From Alphaproteobacteria bacterium (GTDB lineage Bacteria > Pseudomonadota > Alphaproteobacteria > RF32 > CAG-239): a DNA stretch of 64,000 nt. The translations under genes were made by a program, and so were the position numbers. The stretch covers positions 10,530 to 74,529 of the forward strand of contig JAFUSA010000008.1 in the NCBI GenBank assembly GCA_017480745.1, written 5' to 3'. Shown here piece by piece: positions 2,769 through 62,970 of this stretch. Position 1 is the first letter of the stretch; each line of letters starts with the position of its first letter. The notes beneath the pieces were generated by a model that made no database searches, was not told the DNA's origin, and saw nothing but the letters and a program-made list of their open reading frames with translations.

Positions 2769-2922
2769 TCTTTTTACCTTTCTTTTTTTACTACCACCCT
2801 TAAAATAATAGAATTTATCGGAAAAGTAAAGCATTTTTTGATAAAAAATATTTGTAATAAAAAATTGCGATATTTTGCAAAAACAGTCTTGAATTTATGG
2901 GAAATTTGCATATAATGAAAAG

Positions 2923-3225
2923 CGTCAAGTTTTGACTGTGACACCAGAGACCTTATGAAATAGGTACATTGGACCCGGGGGCAGTGCCCGGCATCTCCAC
3001 CATTCAAGGGGATGAATCAGGTTTGACAGTGTATAGTAAAGATATGTGTTGTGTCCGGTGAGATACCACCGTTATCGGTTCAAATTAAATGAATGCAAAT
3101 GATAATTTTGCACCTGTTGCCGTAGCTGCTTAGGCAAAAGCAACGAAATAAATTCTTTGTGCTTTGGTTAGTATAAAGTGGGGGAGGAGCCACCCAGCAA
3201 CAGAACGGCTCGAAACTTGAATTAT
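2923..3225 (+). ncRNA. ssrA: two-piece (circularly permuted) tmRNA gene ssrA: acceptor piece ending ..CUCCACCA at 3002, coding piece starting GGGGAUG at 3008, tag reading frame 3094..3132 (ANDNFAPVAVAA*)
   Basis: Promoter TTGAAT(2889)-16-TATAAT(2911). T-arm-like hairpin CCGGGGGCAGUGCCCGG, then UCUCCACCA. GGGGAUG pairs in trans with CAUCUCC. Resume codon GCA, then AAT GAT AAT TTT GCA CCT GTT GCC GTA GCT GCT TAG. The 3' boundary is approximate. Confidence 0.75.
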
Positions 3226-3237
3226 AAGGGTATAGAT

Positions 3238-3690
3238 ATGGCAGACTTTATCACTGAATTTGATTATGATGAATTAGTTGAAAAATCTTTACGCAATGTG
3301 GTTTATTATGCACTGAAAGTGGTTGAAGAACAGGGCTTACCGGGAGAAAACCATTTTTATATTACCTTTCGAACCAATTATCCGGGAACTATTATTTCTA
3401 AGAATCTTAAAATTCAATATCCGGAAAGTATGACCATTGTATTGCAAAATCAGTTTAATAATTTAGTCGTGCGCCACAATAGTTTTTCTGTTGATTTGAG
3501 TTTTGGTGGAACACCGCAAACAATTACTATTCCATACGATGCCATAACTTATTTTGCCGATCCGTATGCTAAATTTGGTCTTAGTTTTGAACATGATGAT
3601 GCTTTTTATGAAGGAACAGAAGCGCAACAAACATCTGTTGCGGCACAAGATGCCGAAATAATATCCATTGATAAATATCGCAGAAAATAA
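3238..3690 (+). CDS. sspB: ClpXP adaptor SspB-like protein (stringent starvation protein B family)
   Basis: Start moved to MADFITEF. The track ORF ran in-frame through ssrA. Resemblance to the SspB fold (NHFYITFRTNYPG..., ITIPYDAITYFADP) and an acidic C-terminal tail. Confidence 0.5.
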   Translation: MADFITEFDYDELVEKSLRNVVYYALKVVEEQGLPGENHFYITFRTNYPGTIISKNLKIQYPESMTIVLQNQFNNLVVRHNSFSVDLSFGGTPQTITIPYDAITYFADPYAKFGLSFEHDDAFYEGTEAQQTSVAAQDAEIISIDKYRRK

Positions 3691-3944: not shown

Positions 3945-5342
3945 GGTAATTACTTCTAACCGTCCTAACAGCATGGTGAAGCATAAAATATATTTTATGG
4001 AATCAGAGAAAAATGCGTAATTTCCTTTTGGTCCTATAACATCAACCGAGCCGACACCGACATTTGTTATACAAGCCATAACAGCTGCCATAGAGGTTTT
4101 AAAATCTATACCGCACAGGCTTACCATTAGAGTTAGTAACATTATGCTTATCACAAAAGATAATATATATACAAAAACAGAAACAGTGGCTCTTTCCGGC
4201 ATATTTACTGTTCCTATTTTTAGTGGTACCACGCGATTTGGCTCAATGGCAAGCATAAAATAACGTTGCAAAAAAGCCCATACGGCTTGCCACCTAAATA
4301 TTTTTATGGAACCGCTGGTAGAACCGGTGCATCCCCCCATTAACGACAGAAAAAGTACGGCCGCCGTTGCCCATGTTCCCCACGAAACATAATCTGACGT
4401 TGTTAAACCGGTTGTTGTTACAATGGATATGACAACAAAAAAGCTTTGCCTCAATGCTTCCCATAAAGTGTTATCGGAATCAGCGCACAGGTATATACCA
4501 AGCAGAACAGCATAAGTGACAATTAGCTTAAAAAATACTCTTACCTGTTTGTTTTTATCCGCTTGCATACGTCGCAACAACAAAATATAAAAAGTCATAG
4601 GTAATGCTCCGGCAAGCATAAAAAACATTACTGCCAACTCAATGATGAAGCTGTTATAAAAACCGATGGAATCATTTTTGGTTGAAAAACCACCGGTCCC
4701 GATGGCTGACATTGCATGATTAACGGCATCAAACCAATCCATTCCGCACAAAAATAAAACTCCGCCGGCAATCATGAACAGAAAGACATAAACTATTACA
4801 ATTCTTTTGGCTATATAACTGAATTTAGGCATAAACTTGTCGTTTGAATCAGAGTTTTCGTGCTGAAACATTTGCATTCCACCGATACCCAAAAATGGCA
4901 GCAACGCCACAGCAAAAATAACTATTCCCAATCCGCCAATATAATTTAACAATGATCGCCACAGCAATATTGAAATAGGTAAACTTTCCACATCATTCAT
5001 AATTGTGGCACCCGTGCCGGTAATACCGGATACGGCTTCAAACAGTGCATCGGTAAAATTGAAAACACTTTTATGTAATTCAAAAGGCATTGAGGCAAAC
5101 AAAGCCACCAAAATCCAGCTGACAACAGTTATTAAATATCCTTGTTTAAGGGTAATTCGTTCAATTTTGGTTTTATGCGCCAAAAACAGGGCAAACCCAA
5201 AAAATATGGTTAACAATGCGGAGTTTATGAAAGGTGACCACTCCATATTTTGCACAAACAAATCCAATGCCGCAGGTATCAGCATAACCAGCCCTAAAAC
5301 ACCAAGAATATATCCGCTAATCATTAAAACCGGTTGCCACAT
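3906..5342 (-). CDS. trkH: Trk-type potassium uptake protein TrkH
   Basis: 478 aa polytopic protein with repeated GxGxT-like pore loops (ITGTGAT, TTTGLT, IGTGGFS). Confidence 0.85.
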   Translation of the reverse strand: MWQPVLMISGYILGVLGLVMLIPAALDLFVQNMEWSPFINSALLTIFFGFALFLAHKTKIERITLKQGYLITVVSWILVALFASMPFELHKSVFNFTDALFEAVSGITGTGATIMNDVESLPISILLWRSLLNYIGGLGIVIFAVALLPFLGIGGMQMFQHENSDSNDKFMPKFSYIAKRIVIVYVFLFMIAGGVLFLCGMDWFDAVNHAMSAIGTGGFSTKNDSIGFYNSFIIELAVMFFMLAGALPMTFYILLLRRMQADKNKQVRVFFKLIVTYAVLLGIYLCADSDNTLWEALRQSFFVVISIVTTTGLTTSDYVSWGTWATAAVLFLSLMGGCTGSTSGSIKIFRWQAVWAFLQRYFMLAIEPNRVVPLKIGTVNMPERATVSVFVYILSFVISIMLLTLMVSLCGIDFKTSMAAVMACITNVGVGSVDVIGPKGNYAFFSDSIKYILCFTMLLGRLEVITLFVVFSRSFWRS

Positions 5343-5349
5343 TGCAATA

Positions 5350-6198
5350 CTATTTTAACCCCACATTATCAGCTAAATGATAATCAACCATTTTTTTATT
5401 CAGAAAAATGCCATCAACAAAGCAAAGTGCAGTTCCGGCTTGTGATTGAGAGGTATAGGCAACAACCTCGCAATACACCTGTCTGTCTTTGGTTGCCGTA
5501 ACCAAAAAATCCTGAGCCAATTTTAAATCATAATCGTTCGGATTGCTGTATATACCGTATAAATAAACATATTCGCCGGCAATATAAAAACTGTTCGGTC
5601 CTACCACATCAACAGTGCTGTATAATTTTTCCGGTGTTTCTAAATATTCTAAGTCATTGTTATCTAACACAATATAATATTGGCTTAAATCGCCGTCATA
5701 GTATTTTTCGGAGTTATTTTTGCCGTCATTTGGAGTATGGGCCATAATTTGCAATTTTCTCTTCGAGGCGCTTTTAGCTTTCAATTTAGCTTTTTCCGGG
5801 TTATATTTTGCCTTACGAAAACCGGCAACATTCCATGAAACAAATTTAACATCCTCTTTTTTATTTTCTCCCTCAGCTTTTTGAGGTTGTTTTTTATTGA
5901 TGGCAGGTTTTACGATACGTTCAATGCTCTCCGCCTTTTCCTTAACTTTGTATATAGCTTCCTCTTTGATTTCCACAAACTCGTGGGTTGGCATTTTTAC
6001 CATATACCATGCCCACACATCATGGAGCTTTATTCCCTTAAACATCGGAACTGCAATTAAAATAAGTATTAACACAAGCAATCCAACGGTTATTTGCCAA
6101 AACTTTCTAAATGGAAGAGTTATCAGCATAATAGCACGATGAATCCACAGCAATACACCACTTAAACGCATTTCAACCCATTCTTTTTTGTCAGCCAT
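5350..6198 (-). CDS. membrane-anchored protein with C-terminal staphylococcal-nuclease (SNase)-like domain
   Basis: Start moved to MADKKEW, directly after the metG stop. One TM segment. The C-terminal VYCEVVAY..GTALCFVDGIFLNKKMVDYHLA resembles the thermonuclease fold. Confidence 0.4.
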   Translation of the reverse strand: MADKKEWVEMRLSGVLLWIHRAIMLITLPFRKFWQITVGLLVLILILIAVPMFKGIKLHDVWAWYMVKMPTHEFVEIKEEAIYKVKEKAESIERIVKPAINKKQPQKAEGENKKEDVKFVSWNVAGFRKAKYNPEKAKLKAKSASKRKLQIMAHTPNDGKNNSEKYYDGDLSQYYIVLDNNDLEYLETPEKLYSTVDVVGPNSFYIAGEYVYLYGIYSNPNDYDLKLAQDFLVTATKDRQVYCEVVAYTSQSQAGTALCFVDGIFLNKKMVDYHLADNVGLK

Positions 6199-8734: not shown

Positions 8735-8810
8735 GGTCCCATCGTCTAGTGGCTTAGGACGCGGCCCTCTCAAGGCTGCAACACGAGTTCGAATCTCGTT
8801 GGGATCACCA
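8735..8810 (+). tRNA. tRNA-Glu (anticodon CUC)
   Basis: Hand-folded cloverleaf: acceptor GGTCCCA/TGGGATC, anticodon loop CTCTCAA, T-arm GTTCGAATC, 3' CCA encoded. Terminator hairpin 8817..8850. Confidence 0.8.
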
Positions 8811-8816
8811 ATACAA

Positions 8817-8850
8817 ACGGCAGGCTCTAAATTGCCTGTTGTTTCTTTTT
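8817..8850 (+). terminator. intrinsic terminator after tRNA-Glu (ACGGCAGGC..GCCTGTTGT + TTCTTTTT)
   Basis: Hairpin plus T-run seen in sequence. Confidence 0.6.
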
Positions 8851-9105
8851 AAATCAGGTGTTTATATGAGTTCGTAAGTTCGTTTTTTGAAAATACGCAT
8901 TTTGGAAATTTTACGAACCGGTTATAGCAACAATGCAATAAAATCAAGGATTTAATTAGTTTGAGTCCCGCCAAAGTTGTTGGTGTGCATTTGACTTGGT
9001 TGATGCAATAATTTTTTACCGAAATGGGAAAGAAAATGAATGAATGTTTACTTTATTTAACAAGTTTTGTAGTATAAGCACAAAGAGTATAAGTGGAGGA
9101 AATAA

Positions 9106-10405: not shown

Positions 10406-11467
10406 ATGACAATGGATTATAATTTTTTGAGCAAAGATGATAGCCTATATTTGAAAGGGTTGGCAATTTTATTGATTGTCTTACATAATTTTTTTATTAA
10501 AATACCTCCGGTTACTCTGGCTAACGAATTTTTCTTTCATATTTCTTTTTTGCAAGAAGCATGGAATAATTTTTCCGTTACCGAAAGTTTGAATATAGTG
10601 CTTTCTTTTATCGGCTATGGCGGGATTTATATTTTTTTCTTTTTGAGCGGTTACGGTTTAAGTAAAAAAATGCGCCTTAATGATGATCCGTTTTATGCGA
10701 TTAAAAGAATTTGGCAACTTGAAAAATTATTGCTAATAGGTTTGGTTGTCTATTTGATTTTCAATCCGTTGTCTTTTAATTTTTTACATATAATAAATGC
10801 GCTATCTTTGACAAACAATTTTTTTGTTAAAAATTTGCATCAAATTGAAGGTTCGTGGTGGTTTTTATTTTGTTTGGCGCAATTATATGTGATTTTTTAT
10901 CCGTTGTATCGTTTTATTGGCAAAAATAAAAATAATTTTCTGCTGATTATCTACTTATACGTTATGTTGGCATATATAGGGAGCCCGCTGAGTATATTAT
11001 TGGAAGATGATGAGTTTTTCTATCGCATTTTTATAGGGCATATTCCTGAATTTTGTCTGGGTATTTTTGTGGCAACTTATGAAAATAGTTTGCCGCTTTT
11101 GCAGAATAAAAAAACTTATTTTTATGCACTAACGGTTGGAATAATTATATTTATTCTGTGTCAACTAACTTTTTGGTTGTGGATATTTTCCGGTTTGGCT
11201 TTTGTAGCAATATTTATCAGTTCATATAAACTTTTGAAGGGGTATGTTGCGAATAAATATATCAAATATTTGGGAAAAATAAGCCCTTATGTTTATATAA
11301 TCCATTGCGTCTTGTTATTGCACTTTTTTACCGATATGGTAAAAAACTCGTCGGCGTATGAAAAAATAATGTCATGTGCACTGTGGTTTTGTGTAGTGCT
11401 GCTCGCCGGAGGATTGTTGAGCAAATTATTTGCGTTACCAATATTAAAACGTTGCGGCGATAAATAA
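10406..11467 (+). CDS. acyltransferase family 3 (OatA-like) integral membrane O-acyltransferase
   Basis: Start MTMDYNF after AAAGGAAA. LKGLAILLIVLHNFF motif and ~10 TM helices. Confidence 0.55.
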   Translation: MTMDYNFLSKDDSLYLKGLAILLIVLHNFFIKIPPVTLANEFFFHISFLQEAWNNFSVTESLNIVLSFIGYGGIYIFFFLSGYGLSKKMRLNDDPFYAIKRIWQLEKLLLIGLVVYLIFNPLSFNFLHIINALSLTNNFFVKNLHQIEGSWWFLFCLAQLYVIFYPLYRFIGKNKNNFLLIIYLYVMLAYIGSPLSILLEDDEFFYRIFIGHIPEFCLGIFVATYENSLPLLQNKKTYFYALTVGIIIFILCQLTFWLWIFSGLAFVAIFISSYKLLKGYVANKYIKYLGKISPYVYIIHCVLLLHFFTDMVKNSSAYEKIMSCALWFCVVLLAGGLLSKLFALPILKRCGDK

Positions 11468-12537: not shown

Positions 12538-12587
12538 TTATGCGTACATGATATATGAAAAATTTTTATTTAGCAAGCTTTTTTATT

Positions 12588-12850
12588 TGACTTTTAGATT
12601 TTTTATGGTAGTATAGAAACAGAACTTCGGTTCGGAGCCTTCATAAGCTCTTATTAATTCCGATGCCTTGCATCGTTAATAGACATGATAAATATCTCCG
12701 ACATGGTTGGGGAGCGTTTTGCGGATGTTCAGGGTGTTAGCCTAAAGGTAAGACGGATCATTTGAATTAATATGGTTTATGAACTCTCCCGACCGCCGTT
12801 TGGCGGTTAGATTTTTATTAATATATAACTTTAACTTAGGAGATAAAATT
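12588..12850 (+). promoter_or_regulatory. class-A pilin-cassette promoter (TTGACT..TGGTAGTAT) + ~230-nt conserved structured 5' leader ending in terminator-like hairpin GACCGCCGTTTGGCGGT + U-run
   Basis: Near-identical to leaders at 35296..35555(-), 40133..40519, 46082..46350 and 62657..62924(-). Internal hairpin CUCCGAC/GUUGGGG shows compensatory changes between copies. Confidence 0.7.
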
Positions 12851-35295: not shown

Positions 35296-35555
35296 TTTTA
35301 AATCTCCTTCTTGAAAAAATTTGACATTAATAACTAATCAACCGCCAAACGGCGGTCGGGAAGTAAGAAAATCATAGAATTGCAAATGATCCTCGTAATC
35401 TTTAAGCTAATGCTCTGAACATCCACCACGAGCTCCCCAACCCAAGTCGGAGATACATCAATATAACGGCGTCAAGCGCCGACAATTCTAAGAGCTTTCT
35501 TAGGGCCCGAACCGAAGTTCAACTCCTATATTATCACAAAAAACGCAAAAGTCAA
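35296..35555 (-). promoter_or_regulatory. class-A pilin-cassette promoter + structured leader (minus strand)
   Basis: Reverse complement matches the 12588..12850 element end to end. Confidence 0.7.
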
Positions 35556-35655
35556 ACAAAAAAATAACAACAACGTAAAATTTAGCAAAAATATCTTGAA
35601 ATCAAGCAGCATTTTGCTAATATAGGCGTATGAATAACAACTGACGGCAAAAATT

Positions 35656-36498: not shown

Positions 36499-37649
36499 AA
36501 TATTATTTGATTGCCGGCGAGCCGTCGGGAGATTCTTTGGGCGGACGTTTAATGCAAGCTTTGAAACAAAAAGATCCCAACGCCGAGTTTATCGGAATCG
36601 GCGGAGATAATATGCAGGAACAAGGATTAAAATCCTTATTTGATATAAGCGAGTTGGCAGTTATGGGTATTGCCGAAGTAATACCAAGCATTCCGCGAAT
36701 CTTAAAACGCATAAAGCAAACAGTAGCTGAAATTGAAAGGACAAAGCCAGATGCTGTTATAACTATTGACAGTTGGAGTTTTTGCGCGCGTATCCACAAA
36801 AAAATACGCGCTCTGAAATTAGGAATTCCACAAATTCACTATGTTGCTCCGCAGGTGTGGGCTTGGAAAAAAAGGCGCGCACGAACTATGTATAAATACA
36901 TAGATTTATTACTAACTCTTTTTCCGAATGAACCGAAGTATTTTACTCCATATCATTTAGATACAGTATTTGTCGGACATCCGGTAATTGAAAGCGCCAT
37001 CGTTAATAATAGCTCTAACGGCTTATTTAAAAAAGAGCACAACATTGAAGAAAATAAACGTATTATGCTTATTTTACCGGGGTCACGACACAATGAAGTT
37101 CAACGCTTGTTGCCTGATTTTATGGAAGCAGCTAAAATTGTGCAAAGAAAATTTACAGATATTGTATTCGTGATTCCGACAGTCAGCACTGTTGCCAAAC
37201 GCGTTAAGCAAATGGTGCGTAACTATGCTTTGCCGGTGATTATTGTTGAGGGGCAAGACGAACGAAGCAAAGCTTTTTGCGACTCCTCAGTGGCTGTTGC
37301 CGCCTCAGGTACTGTGGCTTTAGAGTTAGCTATTATTAACGTTCCACATATAATTGCTTATAAAGTGCCCAAACTAACCGAGATTTTAGCACGTTGCTTT
37401 TTACACATAAAATTTGTGAATTTAACCAATCTTTTGCTCAACCGCTTAGTTGTTCCCGAACTTTTGCAACAAGAATGCAATCCAAAAAATATTGCTTCTT
37501 ATGTAATAAAATTTTTGACCGATGCGGGAGAATATCAGCACCAAAAACAAGGATTTGAAGAAGCTCGGATAATGCTTGGATTTGGTCGGCAAACACCAAG
37601 TGAAAACGCCGCACAAGCCATAATTAATAAAATAAACGCTCTGAAATGA
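36495..37649 (+). CDS. lpxB: lipid-A-disaccharide synthase
   Basis: MKYYLIAGEPSGDSLGGRLMQALK N-terminus, GT-B fold. Confidence 0.85.
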   Translation: MKYYLIAGEPSGDSLGGRLMQALKQKDPNAEFIGIGGDNMQEQGLKSLFDISELAVMGIAEVIPSIPRILKRIKQTVAEIERTKPDAVITIDSWSFCARIHKKIRALKLGIPQIHYVAPQVWAWKKRRARTMYKYIDLLLTLFPNEPKYFTPYHLDTVFVGHPVIESAIVNNSSNGLFKKEHNIEENKRIMLILPGSRHNEVQRLLPDFMEAAKIVQRKFTDIVFVIPTVSTVAKRVKQMVRNYALPVIIVEGQDERSKAFCDSSVAVAASGTVALELAIINVPHIIAYKVPKLTEILARCFLHIKFVNLTNLLLNRLVVPELLQQECNPKNIASYVIKFLTDAGEYQHQKQGFEEARIMLGFGRQTPSENAAQAIINKINALK

Positions 37650-39670
37650 AAAAAATTTGGCGACATATTAAAAATTACGTAAGTGGTAATTTTTTAGCCG
37701 AACAATCACAATGGATTTCTATTTTTCCGTTTTTGTTTGCTTTGGGAATCTCTCTATATTTTGCTTTACCTTTTGAGCCTAATATATGGCTTAGCGTGGC
37801 AATTTTTGAAGGTTGCCTATTTTTAATTTATCATTATCGTATGCGTGGAGAATACATTTTGTTTATGGCTGTTTTGATAATAGTATGCGGCTTTATCAAC
37901 ATACAAGCGCATTCGCTTTATCAGTCCAAACACATTGAAAATATTAATGACAGAACCGTTACTTATCTTAAAGGACAAATCGCCGACATTAATCGCAGTG
38001 AAAAAGGCAAAGTACGCATATTACTTGCACATGCGGAAAATTATGACACTACCCTAAAAGGTAATTATCGCATAACATTAAGCAGTAAGACATCTGATTT
38101 GAAAATCGGGCAATGTGTGGAAACAGTGGCAACTTTATTTGCCCGTTCACCCATGCCTATATTGAACGGCTATCAAATAGACCGCAAAAATTTTTATGAA
38201 AATTTGAGTGCAATCGGTTATACTGACAGTGAGATCTTTGTTGTTGATTGCCCGCGTGAATATAGCGGTTATAATTTTAAGCAACGTTTGAATAGTTTGC
38301 GTAAAAATATTACGGATTATATAGCCAAAGTTCTACCGGCAAAAGAAGCCGGTATTGCTGATGCTTTGTTAGTTGGTGAAAAATCATTTATAGCACAAAA
38401 CACGATAGATAATTATCGCAATTCCGGTTTGGCGCATTTTCTTTCTGTTTCCGGCTTACATTTAGGAACTATTGCCGGATTGGTATTTTTTCTGATGCGA
38501 TTGATAATCGCCGGCATACCGTGGCTCTCTTTACGAATCGATGCCAAGAAAACGGCAGCTTTTTGCGCAATTATTTTCAGCTTTTTATACCTACTTATTT
38601 CAGGTATGGCCATACCTGCACAACGTGCTTTTATTATGACTTCGGTAGTTTTATTAGGAGTTATCTGCAACCGACAAGCCATATCGCTGAGAATGGTATG
38701 TTTTGCTGCAATGGTAATATTGATTATCTCGCCGCAAGCACTAATATCTATAAGCTTCCAAATGTCTTTTGCTGCCGTATTCGCTTTGGTGGCATTTTAT
38801 GAGCGATATTCCGCAAAATTAGCGCGTCTATCAGCGACGAATAACTTTTTTGCCAAAATTCTTTGGTATTTATGTGGAATTATTATTTGTGATTTTATCG
38901 CCAGTTTAGCAACAACCCCGTTTGCCTTGTATCATTTTCATCGGGTAGCTGTCTATACAAGCTTAGGTAATTTATTAGCCGGTCCGCTGATAGGACTTTG
39001 GTTGATGCCGGCAGTATTATTATGTTTGGCCGCATTACCGTTAGGGTTGGCAGAATATCCGCTTAAACTGTTGGGTTTAGGTATTGGTATCTTAAATAAC
39101 ATAACCGCTTTTGTGGCAAATTTACCACATAGCGTGTGGCAAAGCTCGGCTTTATCTTTTGGTGGATTTATTTTGATAATCATCGGCGGATATTGGCTGT
39201 GTATTTGGCAAAGAAAATGGCGTAAATTGGGATTGATAGCAATTTTTGCCGGTATTATTTCTATGTTTGGTAACCATACAAAACCTGATGTTGTTATAGC
39301 TCCTAAGGCGCAGAATATTGCCGTAAGAGATAATGAAGGTAATTTACTTATGATCGCCGGCGCATCCGATAGTTGGCTTAAAAGTGTTTGGCAAGAAAAT
39401 TTGGATTTGATAGAACAAAACAGGCAACAAAAAAATAAAATATTGCGAGCTTTGCGAAATCAAACTCCCATGCCTGAAAATTTGCCGATAAAATGCACAA
39501 ACAATATGTGCACATATAAAGAATATCTGCGCTTTGATAATTTGGGAAATGTTTGGTTAAATGGTGAGAAAATAAACACGATATCCGGTGGATATGTTTA
39601 TTTACAAAACGGGGGTTATTGGTATCCGCTTTGGCAAAATAATTGTCGTATTTGGCGTGGTTGTGAATAA
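37646..39670 (+). CDS. comEC: ComEC/Rec2-family DNA internalisation channel protein (no metallo-beta-lactamase domain)
   Basis: DUF4131-like N-terminal TM block and competence domain GLAHFLSVSGLHLG. ATGA overlap with lpxB. Confidence 0.7.
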   Translation: MKKIWRHIKNYVSGNFLAEQSQWISIFPFLFALGISLYFALPFEPNIWLSVAIFEGCLFLIYHYRMRGEYILFMAVLIIVCGFINIQAHSLYQSKHIENINDRTVTYLKGQIADINRSEKGKVRILLAHAENYDTTLKGNYRITLSSKTSDLKIGQCVETVATLFARSPMPILNGYQIDRKNFYENLSAIGYTDSEIFVVDCPREYSGYNFKQRLNSLRKNITDYIAKVLPAKEAGIADALLVGEKSFIAQNTIDNYRNSGLAHFLSVSGLHLGTIAGLVFFLMRLIIAGIPWLSLRIDAKKTAAFCAIIFSFLYLLISGMAIPAQRAFIMTSVVLLGVICNRQAISLRMVCFAAMVILIISPQALISISFQMSFAAVFALVAFYERYSAKLARLSATNNFFAKILWYLCGIIICDFIASLATTPFALYHFHRVAVYTSLGNLLAGPLIGLWLMPAVLLCLAALPLGLAEYPLKLLGLGIGILNNITAFVANLPHSVWQSSALSFGGFILIIIGGYWLCIWQRKWRKLGLIAIFAGIISMFGNHTKPDVVIAPKAQNIAVRDNEGNLLMIAGASDSWLKSVWQENLDLIEQNRQQKNKILRALRNQTPMPENLPIKCTNNMCTYKEYLRFDNLGNVWLNGEKINTISGGYVYLQNGGYWYPLWQNNCRIWRGCE

Positions 39671-39725
39671 AAAACAGCAGATACTTGCTAAATTATATGT
39701 GTTTTTATATAAGTATCTTGTTCTG

Positions 39726-39798
39726 CGGATGTAATTCAATGGTAGAATAGAAGCTTCCCAAGCTTATAACGGGGGTTCGATTCCCCTCATCCGCTCCA
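39726..39798 (+). tRNA. tRNA-Gly (anticodon CCC)
   Basis: GCGGATG acceptor, anticodon loop TTCCCAA, GGGGGTTCGATTCCCCT T-arm, CCA encoded. Terminator 39806..39833. Confidence 0.85.
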
Positions 39799-39872
39799 AT
39801 AACACAAAAAGCACCGTTTTCGGTGTTTTTTTGCGTTATTTAGGACTAAGTATTGAATCGAAACCCCGTTTA
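39781..39872 (+). repeat. direct repeat copy 1: tRNA-Gly 3' end (18 nt) + terminator + 60 nt downstream
   Basis: 92 bp; 2 mismatches versus 40013..40104. Confidence 0.8.
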
Positions 39873-40012
39873 ACGGGGGCCGGAGAAAAAAAATTGCTTC
39901 GGTGAAGCAATTTTTAACGACGGGCGAAGTGAACGAGCTGAGTAAGCAAGCGAAAGCGCCGCGCAACGAAACCGAGAACGAGTGACCGAAGCAAGCGTAG
40001 CGATGTAAGAAA

Positions 40013-40104
40013 ATTCCCCTCATCCGCTCCAATAACACAAAAAGCACCGTTCACGGTGTTTTTTTGCGTTATTTAGGACTAAGTATTGAATCGAAACCCC
40101 GTTT
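40013..40104 (+). repeat. direct repeat copy 2 (att-like duplicate of tRNA-Gly 3' end)
   Basis: Seen by eye; separated from copy 1 by a 140-bp GC-richer segment. Confidence 0.8.
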
Positions 40105-40132
40105 TTTATAACAGATTTTTTTACAATTTTAT

Positions 40133-40519
40133 TTGACTTTTAGATTTTTTATGGTAGTATAGAAACAGAACTTCGGTTCGGGGCTTTAGCAAGCTCTTAT
40201 TAACCTCGGTGTTTTTTAACATCGTCAAAAAATATGATGAATATCTCCCAACATGGTTGGGAAGCCTGTGATGGATGTACAAGGAATAATCCCAAAGGTT
40301 GCAGGAATCATTTAGGTTAATATGATTTGCTAACTTCCCGGCCGCCGTTTGGCGGTTTTTTCGTTATAAAATAACCATTACTCCGGTTATTTTTAAGGAA
40401 AGAACCACAGAGCAAGTGACCGAAGCGTAATTAGCGATTGCCAAGCGTTAGAGTAGGCAGAGCTTATGAAGCAAGAAGTTTTTTACTAATAGATATTTCT
40501 CAAGAAAGGAGATAAAATA
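40133..40519 (+). promoter_or_regulatory. class-A pilin-cassette promoter + leader, with ~150-nt extra segment between the terminator hairpin (40337..40361) and the SD
   Basis: Matches the other class-A leaders. The extra segment contains AGTGACCGAAGCGTAATTAGCGATTG, related to GAGTGACCGAAGCAAGCGTAGCGATG at 39986. Confidence 0.7.
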
Positions 40520-41230
40520 ATGAAAAAAATAAATAATCAAAATGGTCGTTCGATGATAGAAATGTTGGGTGTGTTGGCTATAATCGGTGTTTTGTCGGTT
40601 GGTGGAATCGCCGGATATTCCAAAGCCATGATGAAGTATCGTATTAACAAAACTATTGAGCAAATAACACTTATTGCCGGTAATGTGCGTGCATTTTTTG
40701 CTTCGCAAAAAAATTATGATGGTTTAGATTCTGCCAACGTAGGTAGTGATAATGGTTTAGCGCTAATTAAAAAAGCTAAATTGGTAAATGAAGAAATGAT
40801 TGATGAAAATAATGAAATTGTTGATGAAGATTTATCTCACACTCATCATATCTTTAATTCATTCGGAGGTGGTGTTGCATTGTGGGACGATTATCAAGGA
40901 ACTGCCAATGTCCCAGGAACCCCTCATACTAAATATTTTCAGATTATATATTTTCGTTTACCACAAGAGGTATGTATAGAATTGGTAACTCAAAATTGGA
41001 GTAATTCGGCCATGGGTTTGAAAGTATTGATTATAAATTCTAAGGAAGAGCTTGATGAATTTGGCAATGTAAAGGATTCGTGTTCAGATAACAATGGTTT
41101 AATAAACGGTACTAAGACAATTGCCTGCCCGAATGGAAAAACTGTACCGATTCCGGTACCGTTGGATATAGCAGTTGATGCTTGCAATTGTCCAAATAAT
41201 GACTGCACCATTATATGGGGATTTAAATAA
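40520..41230 (+). CDS. type IV pilin-like protein, paralog 5
   Basis: MKKINNQNGRS|MIEML...; KKAKLVNEEM; PQEVCIELVTQNW; C-terminal DACNCPNNDC. Confidence 0.7.
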   Translation: MKKINNQNGRSMIEMLGVLAIIGVLSVGGIAGYSKAMMKYRINKTIEQITLIAGNVRAFFASQKNYDGLDSANVGSDNGLALIKKAKLVNEEMIDENNEIVDEDLSHTHHIFNSFGGGVALWDDYQGTANVPGTPHTKYFQIIYFRLPQEVCIELVTQNWSNSAMGLKVLIINSKEELDEFGNVKDSCSDNNGLINGTKTIACPNGKTVPIPVPLDIAVDACNCPNNDCTIIWGFK

Positions 41231-41292: not shown

Positions 41293-43896
41293 TTACAACT
41301 TAAAATCAGTTACACCTTCATAGGCATAGCGATACATTTGTTCAATTTCCTTAAACAACGGATAGCGTGGGTTGGCTCCGGTACATTGGTCATCAAAGGC
41401 CAATTCCGGCAAAGTCTTCATTGCTTCTTCCCAAGCTTTTTCATCAATACCCCAATCTTTAATAGACATCGGAATATTGAGTGCCTTTTTCATTTCTTGC
41501 AAAGCATTGATTAAATTATCAACGGCTTCATCATCTGTCGCACCACTCAAACCGATACCGCGAGCAAACGCTGCATAAGCGGCTTTGGTGTCAGGATAGC
41601 GATATTGCGGGAATGTTGCTTGCTTAGCCGGACAGTCGTTAGAGTTATAACGAATTACCTGACAAATTAACAAAGCGTTGGCAATACCATGCGGAACATG
41701 GAATGCGGCTCCCAACTTGTGCGCCATCGAGTGACATACACCCAAGAAAGCATTGGCAAAAGCCATACCGGCAATAGTTGCAGCGTGGTGAACTTTTTCA
41801 CGCGCGCTAAATTCGGCTGTTTCATATGATTTTACTAAATTTTCGTAAATCAAACGACCGGCTTCAACCGATAAACCACGTGTGTAATCATTAGCCATGC
41901 AGGAAACATACGATTCCAAAGCATGTGTCATAACGTCAATACCTGATGCGGCACATAAACCCTTAGGCATAGTCAATACTAAATCAGTATCAACAATAGC
42001 CATGGTAGGAGTTAAGGCATAATCAGCGATAGCATATTTTACACCGGTTGAATCATCGGTAATAATGGCAAACGGAGTAACTTCCGAACCGGTACCCGAA
42101 GTAGTCGGAATAGCAACCATTTCAGATTTCAATCCCATCGGCGGAAATTCGAAAATACGTTTACGAATATCCATAAAGCGACGCGCTAAATCTTCAAACT
42201 TCAATTCCGGATGTTCATACATCAACCACAAAATTTTAGCAGCATCCATCGGCGAACCGCCACCCAACGCAATAAATACATCTGGTTCAAACGAAAGCAC
42301 CATATCGCGAGCTTTATTGATGGTTGTTAAGTCCGGATCCGGTTTAACGTCGCTGAAAATACGGTATTGAATGCCGATTCCGTCAAGAATATCGGTAATT
42401 TTTTTGGTGTATCCCAAATCAAACAACGGTTTATCGGTAATAATGAAAGCTTTTTTGCGTCCGCTCAATTCTTTCAAAGCAAAAGATAAACACCCCGGCT
42501 TGAAATAAATTTTCGGCGGAACTTTGAACCACAACATATTTTCTTCACGTTTAGCCACAGATTTAATATTCATAAGATGTTTTACTCCTACATTTTCACT
42601 AACGGAATTACCGCCCCAAGAACCGCAACCCAAAGTTAATGACGGCTCCAATCTAAAATTATAAATATCACCGATTGCACCTTGCGCAGAAGGGCAATTA
42701 ATCATAACACGACCGGTTGGCATGGTATCGCCATATAATTTAATACGGTCATCGTTGCGCGGGTTGGTATATAAAACAGAAGTGTGTCCGGCACCGGCAA
42801 ACAAAACAAGCTCTTTGGCTTTGCCCATAGCATCTTCAAAATCTTTGGCTCGATACATTGCCAAACAAGGCGAAAGTTTTTCAAACGAGAAAGGTTCTTC
42901 CTTGCCGATTTTTTCCACTTCTGCAATTAAAACTTTGGCATTTTCATTGATTTTCAAGCCGGCCATTTCCGCAATTTTAGCGGCTTTTTGACCAACAATG
43001 GCTGAGTTTAATTTACCGTCTTGCACAATGGTTGCAGAAACTTTGGCGCGTTCTTTTTCGTTCAAAATATATGCACCGCGTTTCAAGAATTCCGCTTTAA
43101 CGGCATCATAAATGCTATCAACTATAATAACCGATTGCTCCGAAGCGCAAATCATACCATTATCAAATGTTTTAGACATTAGAATAGAGCTTACCGCCAT
43201 TTGAATATCGGCAGTTTCATCTATTACCGCCGGAGTGTTACCCGGTCCCACACCGATAGATGGAGTTCCGGAAGAATAAGCAGATTTAACCATTCCCGGC
43301 CCACCGGTTGCCAAAATCAAATCAGATTGTTGCATTAAATATTGAGTGCGCAACAAGCTTGGCTCATCAATCCAGCCGATAATATCTTCCGGCGCACCGG
43401 CTTTAACCGCTTCTTGCAATAAAATACGAGCGGTTTCAATAGTGCATTTTTTGGCACGCGGGTGTGGTGAAAAGATAATTCCGTTACGTGTTTTCAAAGC
43501 AATCAATGTTTTGAAAATAACGGTTGATGTTGGGTTTGTTGTCGGAATAACGCCGGCGATAACCCCTATCGGCTCGGCAAATTTGAGCATTCCGTTTTCT
43601 TTATCATCTTCAATAACACCGCAAGTTTTGGTATTTTTAAATTTGTTATAAATATATTCGGAAGCAAAGTGATTTTTTATAACCTTATCTTCGGCAACGC
43701 CCATGCCGGTTTCTTCAACTGCCATCTTGGCCAAAGGTATTCTGAGCGAGCTGGCTTTAAGAGCCACACGACGAAAAATTTCATCAACCTGTTCCTGAGT
43801 ATATGTTGCAAATTTTTTCTGCGCATCACCGGTCTTTTTAATCAATCCGGCAATGTATTCGTATTCCTGTTTTTCATCAACTGGTGTATTTTCCAT
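41293..43896 (-). CDS. adhE: bifunctional acetaldehyde-CoA/alcohol dehydrogenase AdhE
   Basis: 867 aa. N-terminal ALDH domain (catalytic Cys in GMICASEQS) and C-terminal Fe-ADH domain (GGGSPMDAAK, His cluster). Confidence 0.9.
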   Translation of the reverse strand: MENTPVDEKQEYEYIAGLIKKTGDAQKKFATYTQEQVDEIFRRVALKASSLRIPLAKMAVEETGMGVAEDKVIKNHFASEYIYNKFKNTKTCGVIEDDKENGMLKFAEPIGVIAGVIPTTNPTSTVIFKTLIALKTRNGIIFSPHPRAKKCTIETARILLQEAVKAGAPEDIIGWIDEPSLLRTQYLMQQSDLILATGGPGMVKSAYSSGTPSIGVGPGNTPAVIDETADIQMAVSSILMSKTFDNGMICASEQSVIIVDSIYDAVKAEFLKRGAYILNEKERAKVSATIVQDGKLNSAIVGQKAAKIAEMAGLKINENAKVLIAEVEKIGKEEPFSFEKLSPCLAMYRAKDFEDAMGKAKELVLFAGAGHTSVLYTNPRNDDRIKLYGDTMPTGRVMINCPSAQGAIGDIYNFRLEPSLTLGCGSWGGNSVSENVGVKHLMNIKSVAKREENMLWFKVPPKIYFKPGCLSFALKELSGRKKAFIITDKPLFDLGYTKKITDILDGIGIQYRIFSDVKPDPDLTTINKARDMVLSFEPDVFIALGGGSPMDAAKILWLMYEHPELKFEDLARRFMDIRKRIFEFPPMGLKSEMVAIPTTSGTGSEVTPFAIITDDSTGVKYAIADYALTPTMAIVDTDLVLTMPKGLCAASGIDVMTHALESYVSCMANDYTRGLSVEAGRLIYENLVKSYETAEFSAREKVHHAATIAGMAFANAFLGVCHSMAHKLGAAFHVPHGIANALLICQVIRYNSNDCPAKQATFPQYRYPDTKAAYAAFARGIGLSGATDDEAVDNLINALQEMKKALNIPMSIKDWGIDEKAWEEAMKTLPELAFDDQCTGANPRYPLFKEIEQMYRYAYEGVTDFKL

Positions 43897-46009: not shown

Positions 46010-46081
46010 CCACCTTAATTTGAAAAAAAAAGACTGTTTCCATGCTGAAACAGTCTTTTTTTATAGCAAAAAATTTTTTAT

Positions 46082-46350
46082 TTGACTTTTAGATTCTTTA
46101 TGATATAGTAGAAACAGAACTTCGGTTCGGAGCTCTGAAAAGCTCTTAAATACTTCGGTGTTTTAGATAATACCGTGAAAGTGATATAAAAATATCTCCC
46201 GAAAAGGTCGGGAAGCTCGTAACGGATGTTCAGAGCTTTTAGCTCAAAGGTTGCGAGAGTCATTCAAGTATTTATGATTTTTCAGCTCTCCCGACCGCTA
46301 TTTGGCGGTCATGTTTTTAATGTATAACTATTAGCAAAGGAGATAAATTT
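46082..46350 (+). promoter_or_regulatory. class-A pilin-cassette promoter + structured leader
   Basis: Same architecture, with hairpin GACCGCTATTTGGCGGTC + ATGTTTTT before the SD AAAGGAGATAAA. Confidence 0.7.
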
Positions 46351-62656: not shown

Positions 62657-62924
62657 AATTACATCTCCTTTTACAGAAAAACTGTTGATAAAAGACAATG
62701 CCGCCCAAAACGGCGGCAGGGGAGTTCGTAAATCATGTTATGGTAAATGACCCTTGCAATCTTTAAGCTAACGCTCTGAACATCCACTGCAAGCTCCCCG
62801 ACCAAATCGGAGACATTTATCACATATCCAATAACGGTGTAAGAAACACCTACCATAACAAGAGCCTACGACAGCCCCGAACCGAAGTTCTGTTTTACTA
62901 TACCACAAAAGTGGCAAAAGTCAA
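62657..62924 (-). promoter_or_regulatory. class-A pilin-cassette promoter + structured leader (minus strand)
   Basis: Reverse complement matches the class-A consensus, including GAACTTCGGTTCGGGGC, CTCCGATTTGGTCGGGGAG and the CTGCCGCCGTTTTGGGCGGC + T-run hairpin. Confidence 0.7.
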
Positions 62925-62970
62925 ATACTTTTTGCAAAAACGACCATAAAATTTTTATATATCTTTTAAT

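Follow-up and report, generated by a model that had tools for sequence, protein, structure and literature searches.

The tRNA-Gly locus

We examined a 64,000-nucleotide stretch (the window) of contig JAFUSA010000008.1 (forward strand, positions 10,530 to 74,529) from the alphaproteobacterial assembly GCA_017480745.1, and within it a short repeated unit that lies behind a tRNA-Gly gene and belongs to a family of gene-less units found next to tRNA genes. Related contigs and loci are designated by L-numbers, and for those at the tRNA-Gly locus the ComEC gene upstream (37646-39670) served as an anchor. The tRNA-Gly(CCC) gene itself is intact (39725..39798, plus strand; ARAGORN, and 66 bits with the Rfam tRNA model) and its 3′ end is found twice, as the original prediction had claimed, in two direct repeats of 92 nt each (39780-39871 and 40013-40104) that are 98% identical. 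Given the E-value of 1e-40 obtained for this pair by self-BLAST, the repeats cannot be attributed to chance. Their two mismatches are adjacent bases in the loop of a terminator hairpin (TTTT vs. TTCA). The first base of each repeat is A58 of the T-loop, and the repeat comprises the last 19 nt of the tRNA gene (the original prediction had counted 18, with coordinates one base off), the trailer, a terminator-like hairpin, and ca. 40 further bases. Thus, the first copy (39780..39871, plus strand; repeat finding and BLAST) comprises the tRNA 3′ end, trailer, terminator with the TTTT loop, and an inverted tRNA-derived segment, and the second (40013..40104, plus strand; repeat finding) a displaced tRNA 3′ fragment, the terminator with the TTCA loop, and again the inverted segment.

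The repeats enclose a spacer of 141 nt (39872-40012) that is richer in GC than the window (51% vs. 38%) and contains the hairpin AAAAATTGCTTCGGTGAAGCAATTTTT (39889-39915), both features having been described correctly beforehand. A motif near its right end, GTGACCGAAGC, occurs only at 39982 and 40416, with 0.37 chance matches expected at ≤ 1 mismatch.

Unit number in related strains and species

The number of units (one spacer with one flanking repeat, 233 bp in the window) behind tRNA-Gly differs between close strains: there are none in L007, one in the window, and two in L001. The last, from another sample, matches the window at 100% identity over 14 kb save for one extra 233-bp unit, which brings the repeats to three and the spacers to two. 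In L007, identity is 98.7% up to position 39871, and the contig carries a single TTCA-type repeat, identical to the second copy of the window, with neither spacer nor core; the promoter of a pilin cassette follows directly after this repeat, and the body of that cassette differs from the one in the window. The “empty” site of L007 is in reality a solo flank. Contigs from other samples (L002, L003, L030) break inside the array, and the break-points in sample ERZ27256836 (L002, L030) fit either a repeat or a strain mixture, so that no unique unit number can be derived from them.

At greater distances the arrangement is retained in several lineages. L005 and L006 (ComEC protein 79% identical) have the same layout, with homologous flank and spacer followed by a second tRNA 3′ end, though their repeat spans only ca. 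21 nt before a different terminator begins. L015/L017, L024/L026, and L028 (ComEC 56-59% identical) share both locus and architecture, their cores being diverged (termed B2 and B3). Two units stand in tandem in L026, where the middle flank bears the terminator variant of another lineage, which favors accretion over simple duplication. Truly unoccupied sites exist as well: in L018 and L019 (ComEC 55% identical, human gut) a plain tRNA-Gly gene with its terminator is found, lacking both inverted copy and core, and the tRNA-Glu gene of the window is likewise unoccupied while in L013 a unit is present at the orthologous flank. The original prediction had proposed the search for such empty sites, and it had allowed that slippage would account for the duplication equally well if related strains showed no variation in it; such variation does exist, with zero, one, and two spacers in L007, the window, and L001. 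Based on the start of the repeats in the T-loop, the regenerated tRNA, the strain polymorphism, and the unoccupied relatives, we consider the structure an insertion at the tRNA 3′ end and not merely the product of slippage.

Some of these loci have peculiarities of their own. L025, probably a chimeric assembly with a hybrid tRNA, was left out of the analysis: its ComEC is the same as that of L024/L026, yet the 3′ half of its tRNA-Gly (3570-3643) from the T-loop on is of different origin, creating a C6-A67 acceptor mismatch, and is followed by unrelated DNA, which reflects either a chimeric metagenome assembly (the probable case) or a real recombination in the T-loop. In the two Hadza gut contigs L018 (ca. 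5550-5700) and L019 (ca. 5530-5680), whose ComEC genes are identical, a segment of ca. 125 bp between tRNA-Gly and the next gene is inverted in one relative to the other; it is flanked by inverted repeats of ca. 33 bp (GTGTGTAAAAATAACGGTCGTTTTTTTTACACAC) and, judging by this arrangement, looks like a phase-variable promoter switch. In L005/L006 (8574-10962), the pilin gene after the tRNA-Gly array is cut to 75 aa and followed by tRNA-Gln(TTG), a 602-aa protein with DUF6538 and Phage_integrase domains, and an island with a UvrD-like helicase. Here an integrase island of the conventional type, at another tRNA, directly adjoins the small element.

Units behind other tRNA genes

Scanning one genome per species (185,579 species) for the exact pattern of the spacer hairpin region recovered five loci, all of them in metagenome-assembled genomes (MAGs) of uncultured, mostly rumen, Alphaproteobacteria. 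In every case a tRNA gene, read in the same direction, precedes the match by 95-125 nt: Thr(TGT) at three of the loci, Asp(GTC) and Glu(CTC) at one each. A scan of metagenomes added two units, one at tRNA-Val(TAC) and one beside a tRNA-Glu 3′ fragment, and L028 harbors a second unit (4560-4885, minus strand) that is convergent to its tRNA-Gly unit and lies beside a Leu-like tRNA 3′ fragment. Altogether we counted 14 units from ca. 11 related species of uncultured rumen and gut Alphaproteobacteria, with a common layout at six tRNA types (Gly, Thr, Glu, Asp, Val, and the Leu-like fragment). A profile and a covariance model built from the recovered cores found these units only, plus one weak, degenerate copy in the window (ca. 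40351-40478). The phylogeny of the cores does not track the tRNA type, e.g., the core at tRNA-Thr in L012 resembles that at tRNA-Glu in L013. As far as the searches made can tell, the family is previously undescribed.

The Leu-like fragment in L028 is not called by ARAGORN; AT-rich DNA follows, and the core there has no tRNA fragment on its right. In L013 (700-1020) the tRNA-side copy is degenerate and without a tRNA body, an ankyrin-repeat lipoprotein gene ends 30 nt upstream, and the right flank consists of a tRNA-Glu 3′ fragment and a region orthologous to window positions 8791-9029; apparently, the tRNA-Glu(CTC) gene has disappeared from this place or been displaced. Besides this lipoprotein gene, a gene for an SNase-like nuclease adjoins a unit (L009), neither of them a recombinase.

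Anatomy of the unit

The unit consists of four consecutive parts. It opens at the T-loop with a replacement for the last part of the tRNA (positions 58-76), its trailer, and its terminator; next come an inverted and partly decayed copy of the same tRNA segment, a direct copy of ca. 9 nt of the T-stem 5′ strand that forms a small hairpin, and a conserved core of ca. 120-170 nt with three helices. Beyond the unit lies the displaced original 3′ end of the tRNA. In the window, the intrinsic-terminator-like hairpins are located at 39806..39831 and 40039..40064 (plus strand). As an inverted copy of the tRNA 3′ end follows the terminator, the loop of the first hairpin is at the center of a long (ca. 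105 nt) imperfect palindrome. This inverted copy (39832..39873, plus strand; delimited by local alignment and identity counts) corresponds to tRNA positions ca. 42-76 plus the trailer, and it is preserved unevenly, i.e., 18 of 20 positions are identical in the T-arm part and four of 15 in the acceptor part. The other units behave similarly, their T-arm part being kept (16-19 of 20-22) and their acceptor part decayed (4-7 of 14-15). Unoccupied sites (L018/L019 and the tRNA-Glu and tRNA-Arg genes of the window) have no inverted tRNA copy, and thus it must come with the element.

Next to the inverted copy, and abutting the core, is the 9-nt direct copy TAACGGGGG (39871..39879, plus strand) of the variable loop and T-stem 5′ strand (tRNA nucleotides 39767-39775). 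Analogous short copies are present at Thr (GGGTCGGG) and Asp (AGAGGTCGCG) units and at the Glu and Val units, and they pair with the end of the inverted copy to give the small hairpin, seen in the window as the palindrome CCCCGTTTAACGGGG (39864..39878). The right edge of the repeat falls at the center of this hairpin in the window (CCCCGTTT/AACGGGG, the slash marking the edge) and in L015 (CCCTG/AGAGGG), and at the end of the terminator T-run in L008, L012, L014, and L028; the length of the flanking repeat varies among units, from ca. 21 nt (L005) to 92 nt and more.

The core starts with GCCGGAG and ends with, e.g., ...GAAGCAAGA(A/C)(A/G), after which the tRNA resumes from T-loop position 56-59 and continues through CCA and the terminator. 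Positions 56-59 are where the repeat starts in all units, which corresponds to the T-loop class of integrase targets (PMC4383910, PMC1762012). Compared with an intact tRNA, the partial second copy looks as if 3-5 nt of its T-loop had been replaced by the core. It is always the direct partial copy that is interrupted and never the inverted one (14/14 units). At the right junction of the window (...GTAAGAAA/ATTCCCC) the T-stem 5′ strand is missing, and TAACGGGGG sits at the left end of the core.

Conservation and fold of the core

In the window the core occupies 39874..40012 on the plus strand (nhmmer E=3.6e-33; 110 bits with the covariance model for 39874-39992) and consists of an outer stem, the hairpin P1, the stem P2, a box, and a variable right end (...GTAAGAAA). 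P1 (AAAAATTGCTTC-GGT-GAAGCAATTTTT, 12 bp; 39889..39915, plus strand) is terminator-like on both strands, with the longer T run on the minus strand. The near-invariant box CGAGTGACCGAAGC (the CGAGTGACCGAAG box; 39979..39992, plus strand), recognized in alignments of the cores, lies 3′ of P2. Between the window and L005, third-codon positions of ComEC are only 53.5% identical, which is near saturation, while the core is 76% identical (its first 60 nt 87%) and the first flank 80%. By this comparison, the core is shown to be under purifying selection and to evolve much slower than synonymous sites. We regard both the family and the constraint upon it as solid.

RNAalifold combined with manual extraction revealed the outer stem, a P1 of 9-12 bp, and a P2 of 6-7 bp that encloses a constant 36-40 nt. 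The sequence of P1 differs in cores B2 and B3 with its pairing preserved, and the hairpin of L005/L006 carries a compensatory change (TTGCTCC...GGAGCAA). For P2 there are seven versions, all of them complementary: GGTTGC/GCAACC, GTTCCC/GGGAAC, GTTTGC/GCGAAC, GTTTGC/GCAAAC, GTTTTGT/ACAAAAC, GTTTTCT/AGAAAAC, and CCACT/AGTGG. In a model-based alignment of the 14 units, 89.6% of the cells pair, vs. 73% in shuffles and 39-46% with slid partners, and both partners have changed in 17 of 24 pairs, figures that are somewhat inflated as the alignment was fitted to the structure. The window core is the only one with a broken P2 and may be decaying. Single-sequence folding gave z-scores of only −0.8 and −1.7, the structure being visible by comparative analysis alone, and counts of G-U vs. 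A-C pairs are split between the strands. No convincing sigma-70-like promoter for the core was seen on either strand (promoter scan and inspection), and Rfam searches of the window region and of L008, at the gathering threshold and at E ≤ 10, returned no credible match other than tRNA. The core probably acts as a folded single strand, either RNA or single-stranded DNA, and a recombination site, a replication site, or a small RNA are the candidates for its role.

Some more specific possibilities were discarded. A mini-ORF (open reading frame) after GGAGG-A7-TTG at the start of the core meets an in-frame TGA three codons on in three units. For a minihelix, or tRNA-like pairing of the core end with the tRNA fragment, the candidate pairing sequence proved to be tRNA-independent core, and no match to a hammerhead-like core was found.

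Searches for genes and for a helper or parent element

No conserved ORF exists in the unit. An integrase, which the original prediction had advised to look for in the genome, was not found in the window (ORF list, and tblastn with the integrase of L005), and the DUF6538/Phage_integrase protein from the L005 tRNA-Gln island likewise had no tblastn homologue in the unit-bearing loci. Zero matches to the core were obtained in an exact-pattern scan of IMG/VR, and a unit in good preservation had no blastn match in collections of phages and plasmids. No autonomous relative using the same attachment (att) site was found in the species genomes of GTDB (exact pattern), IMG/VR, phages, and plasmids, within searches that were limited by pattern or similarity and in genomes that are fragmentary MAGs.

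Origin of the units

We lean, on balance, towards the unit being a non-autonomous, T-loop-specific integrative element in which the repeats flank one small gene-less unit. As in genuine tRNA islands, a tRNA 3′ repeat with a regenerated tRNA flanks the element and relatives have unoccupied sites; the integrase that islands carry by the att site is missing from the inside of the element. The unit would enter by site-specific recombination in the T-loop, bringing its own tRNA 3′ end, an inferred mode of entry that is typical of tRNA-targeting integrative elements (PMC4383910; PMC1762012), and the recombinase would be encoded elsewhere and act in trans, as has been proposed for integrase-less cis-mobilizable elements flanked by att sites and for tandem accretion (PMC6323972, PMC5704250). 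Its closest analogue would be a minimal, att-flanked element without integrase, resembling a cis-mobilizable element (CIME) or an “attP-only” element. Afterwards, units could be gained or lost when the 92-bp repeats recombine, homologously or unequally, which would yield the strain with a solo repeat, the window with one unit, and the assembly with two. The original prediction, in which an element integrated at the tRNA 3′ end and then lost most of its DNA, is supported in its first half, by the T-loop start, the intact tRNA, the polymorphism, and the unoccupied sites. Its second half is not supported, as the core is conserved, the boundaries are the same in 14 units at six tRNA types, and no parent was found.

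Several observations weigh against the integrative element that we favor. Neither the unit nor the rest of the 64-kb window encodes an integrase or other recombinase, and none lies within several kb of any of the units; no circular or excised form was observed. The junctions do not contain two complete pairs of half-sites, since the right one lacks the T-stem 5′ half-site to be expected in a canonical attR of a tyrosine recombinase, and this half-site is found across the core, on its other side. At tRNA-Gly the element persists across species with 56-79% ComEC identity and looks vertically inherited, and hence it may be mostly immobile now, or beneficial to the host. The difference of one vs. 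two units between assemblies that are 100% identical could be a short-read collapse of a 233-bp tandem repeat. Trailers and terminators on the element side and the native side have the same sequence at most loci, which local copying of the target fits equally well as an imported attP, and the integrative element offers no account of how one core acquired tRNA-specific modules for six tRNAs.

The last two points bear on another possibility, which we hold to be unlikely, namely a miniature mobile element aimed at the universally conserved T-loop of tRNAs that builds its tRNA-specific module by copying the target. As both terminators are usually the same in sequence, the module was perhaps copied rather than imported. 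Such copying could start at the terminator hairpin and proceed by snap-back synthesis or template switching, with a tRNA precursor transcript or a single-stranded intermediate as a possible template, and the core would be the origin, recognition site, or guide scaffold for an enzyme acting in trans (a recombinase, an HUH Rep/relaxase, or a reverse transcriptase). This route would explain the direct-inverted-direct segments, the repeat ends at the T-run or palindrome center, and the single core for six tRNAs. Known modes of insertion fitted poorly: GTTC targeting of the IS91 type is contradicted by a left junction without TTC, insertion of the IS200/IS605 type fails for the same kind of reason, a serine or tyrosine recombinase inserting the core alone into a pseudo T-loop is at odds with the lack of a duplicated overlap and the 3-5 missing nucleotides of the T-loop, and a CTX-like single-strand exchange on a continuous strand would place the core in the inverted copy, where none of the 14 units has it.

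A mobile element may not be needed if the unit is a host-functional non-coding RNA (ncRNA) or terminator module residing in tRNA 3′ flanks and spread by ectopic recombination or template switching in the T-arm, the tRNA repeats being by-products. We think this unlikely, too. In its favor, the three helices covary, purifying selection acts on the core, the unit has apparently persisted vertically at tRNA-Gly in five species, and it is always on the same strand as a highly transcribed tRNA. Of the marks of a structured ncRNA, however, it shows the compensatory structure and neither a promoter of its own (no sigma-70-like sequence on either strand) nor membership in a known Rfam family, its fold z-scores are low, and the G-U vs. 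A-C evidence does not settle on a strand. P1, being terminator-like, would stand at the 5′ side of a plus-strand RNA, and the unit is dispensable, given its absence from L007, L018/L019, and the tRNA-Glu of the window. Moreover, a host RNA would not account for the invariable position of the core at the T-loop, within a partial tRNA copy. A purely local event, i.e., slippage, duplication, or a template-switch inversion duplication at the terminator and the second small palindrome, with no mobile element involved, is opposed by the presence of the core in the direct and never in the inverted copy (14 of 14 units). The head-to-tail period of 233 bp and the variable copy number are in keeping with such an event, and the direct-inverted-direct segments and palindrome-center junctions resemble tandem inversion duplications or inverted triplications (PMC4689423). 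Yet a simple tandem duplication would comprise native local sequence only, and here the same core is shared by non-homologous loci of other species, next to other tRNAs, while unoccupied sites have neither core nor inverted copy. We consider a local origin improbable; as a full explanation it is refuted by the family across tRNAs, and it likely accounts for the changes in copy number within the species.

The proposal closest to the original prediction, that a large tRNA island or prophage lost nearly all of its DNA and left attL, attR, and a 141-bp remnant, with the pilin cassette as cargo or the site as its landing pad, draws on the T-loop start of the repeat, on the existence of integrase islands at tRNA genes in these bacteria (the tRNA-Gln island of L005 with its 602-aa protein), and on the downstream cassette that differs between strains. 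Fourteen units at six tRNA types, alike in architecture and in the limits of the core, a core conserved well above neutral, the lack of a parent in species genomes, viral contigs, phages, and plasmids, and cassette leaders that occur elsewhere without tRNA repeats make it very improbable. Finally, a mis-join or over-extension during metagenome assembly could be suspected from the contigs of other samples that end inside the region, from the one vs. two units in otherwise identical assemblies, and from the chimeric appearance of L025 at the tRNA. As the order repeat-spacer-repeat recurs in independent assemblies and samples (L001, L002 with L030, and the window) and in diverged other species, an artefact is barely credible.

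Comparison with known systems

tRNA genes are classic landing sites of islands and prophages, and the known elements at such sites are, to our knowledge, kilobases long and carry their own integrase. Among integrative elements that target tRNA and tmRNA genes, a T-loop target class has been delineated in the Islander database (PMC4383910) and for the attP of mycobacteriophage Ms6 (PMC1762012). Like these islands, the unit starts at the T-loop and brings a new 3′ end that keeps the tRNA gene intact, and a displaced fragment marks its far end; the core is missing from the site in close strains, and in distant relatives the site is fully unoccupied. Unlike them, it is 233 bp long, has no integrase or other gene, contains an additional inverted tRNA copy, lacks the 5′ half of the T-arm site at its right junction, and uses one core for at least six tRNA types. 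CIMEs are flanked by att sites and devoid of recombination and conjugation genes, and integrative elements are known to undergo tandem accretion (ICEberg 2.0, PMC6323972; reviewed in PMC5704250). The unit matches them in being flanked by att-like repeats and lacking recombination and transfer genes (it has no recombinase of its own), and the tandem units of L026 are non-identical, too. Described CIMEs, however, are kb-sized deletion derivatives of identifiable integrative and conjugative (ICEs) or integrative and mobilizable elements (IMEs) with complete attL and attR, whereas the unit has ca. 230 bp, a conserved folded core, and no known parent element.

Tandem inversion duplications and inverted triplications have been modeled, and the model tested, as template switching at short palindromes (PMC4689423). 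The units share with them the direct-inverted-direct order and the junctions at palindrome centers (the terminator loop and CCCCGTT-T-AACGGGG), but such duplications are sporadic and local, and the units always bring the same foreign core to many tRNAs.

Miniature inverted-repeat transposable elements (MITEs), repetitive extragenic palindromes (REPs) and the bacterial interspersed mosaic elements (BIMEs) made of them, and Rickettsia palindromic elements are short, gene-less, structured, multi-copy, and lineage-confined, and so are the units. The units differ in having no terminal inverted repeats (GCCGGAG... and ...GAAGCAAGAAA, at the two ends of the core, are not inversely repeated) and no short target duplication, the flanking repeat varying in length, and in being strictly behind tRNAs, in one orientation and with tRNA-specific flanks. 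Integron attC sites and the attP hairpin of the CTX phage are recombination sites made of a folded single strand, with covarying helices and tandem arrays. By analogy, the inverted target copy by the junction could allow a single strand of the unit to refold into a T-arm-like duplex with the core looped out; no partner of the XerCD, IntI, or Rep type was identified for the unit, and the core in the inverted copy that continuous-strand exchange of the CTX kind predicts is not seen.

If mobile, the units would represent the smallest class of tRNA-targeting elements and raise the question of how target specificity gets re-programmed. Through the tRNA 3′ fragments and palindromes that they produce, they also disrupt metagenome assemblies and can lead tRNA annotation and island-finding programs astray, and they mark recombination-prone sites beside the variable pilin cassettes of these rumen bacteria.

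Pilin cassettes and other features of the window

The cassette downstream of the second repeat had been placed at 40133, abutting the repeat. It does follow closely, its leader starting at ca. 40127, 22 nt beyond the repeat, and position 40133 marks the −35-like hexamer. This “class-A” leader of ca. 230 nt (40127..40357, plus strand; self-BLAST), a neighbor outside the element, has a promoter-like TTGACT-16-TAGTAT, a structured leader, and a terminator, and it is followed by a type IV pilin-like gene of 236 aa (40520..41230, plus strand; ORF list, with weak Pfam matches to Bundlin and PilS). Including this one, five leader copies are present in the window, at 12581-12808 (+), 35327-35561 (−), 40127-40357 (+), 46076-46309 (+), and 62701-62927 (−); they are 70-79% identical, have no Rfam match, and precede five type IV pilin-like genes with a common N-terminus (GRSMIEMLGVLAIIGVLSVGGIAGYSKAMMKYR...). 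The pattern of leaders and cassettes suggests cassette exchange or an attenuator- or riboswitch-like leader. We had to abandon the idea that the cassette is the surviving cargo of an integrated element: the other four leaders (12581, 35327, 46076, 62701) have no tRNA repeat nearby, L007 keeps a different cassette without any spacer (the cassette body at tRNA-Gly thus differing between strains 98.7% identical), and units at other tRNAs have unrelated neighbors. The cassette is a neighbor and not cargo.

Between the terminator of this leader and the ribosome-binding site of the pilin gene, where the other cassettes have only 35-45 nt, lies the 3′ part of a second, degenerate core (40399..40478, plus strand), ending in ...GAAGCAAGAAG. 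It is ca. 80% identical to positions 95-173 of the L008 core and gives a weak model match at 40351-40426, and it explains the motif that the original prediction had seen recurring at 40410, which is real.

Elsewhere in the window we noted a two-piece (circularly permuted) alphaproteobacterial tmRNA gene (2885-3215) with the tag peptide ANDNFAPVAVAA and an AdhE gene (41293-43896, minus strand). Together with the GC content of ca. 38%, these place the window in a low-GC, probably anaerobic, uncultured alphaproteobacterium of the ruminant gut.

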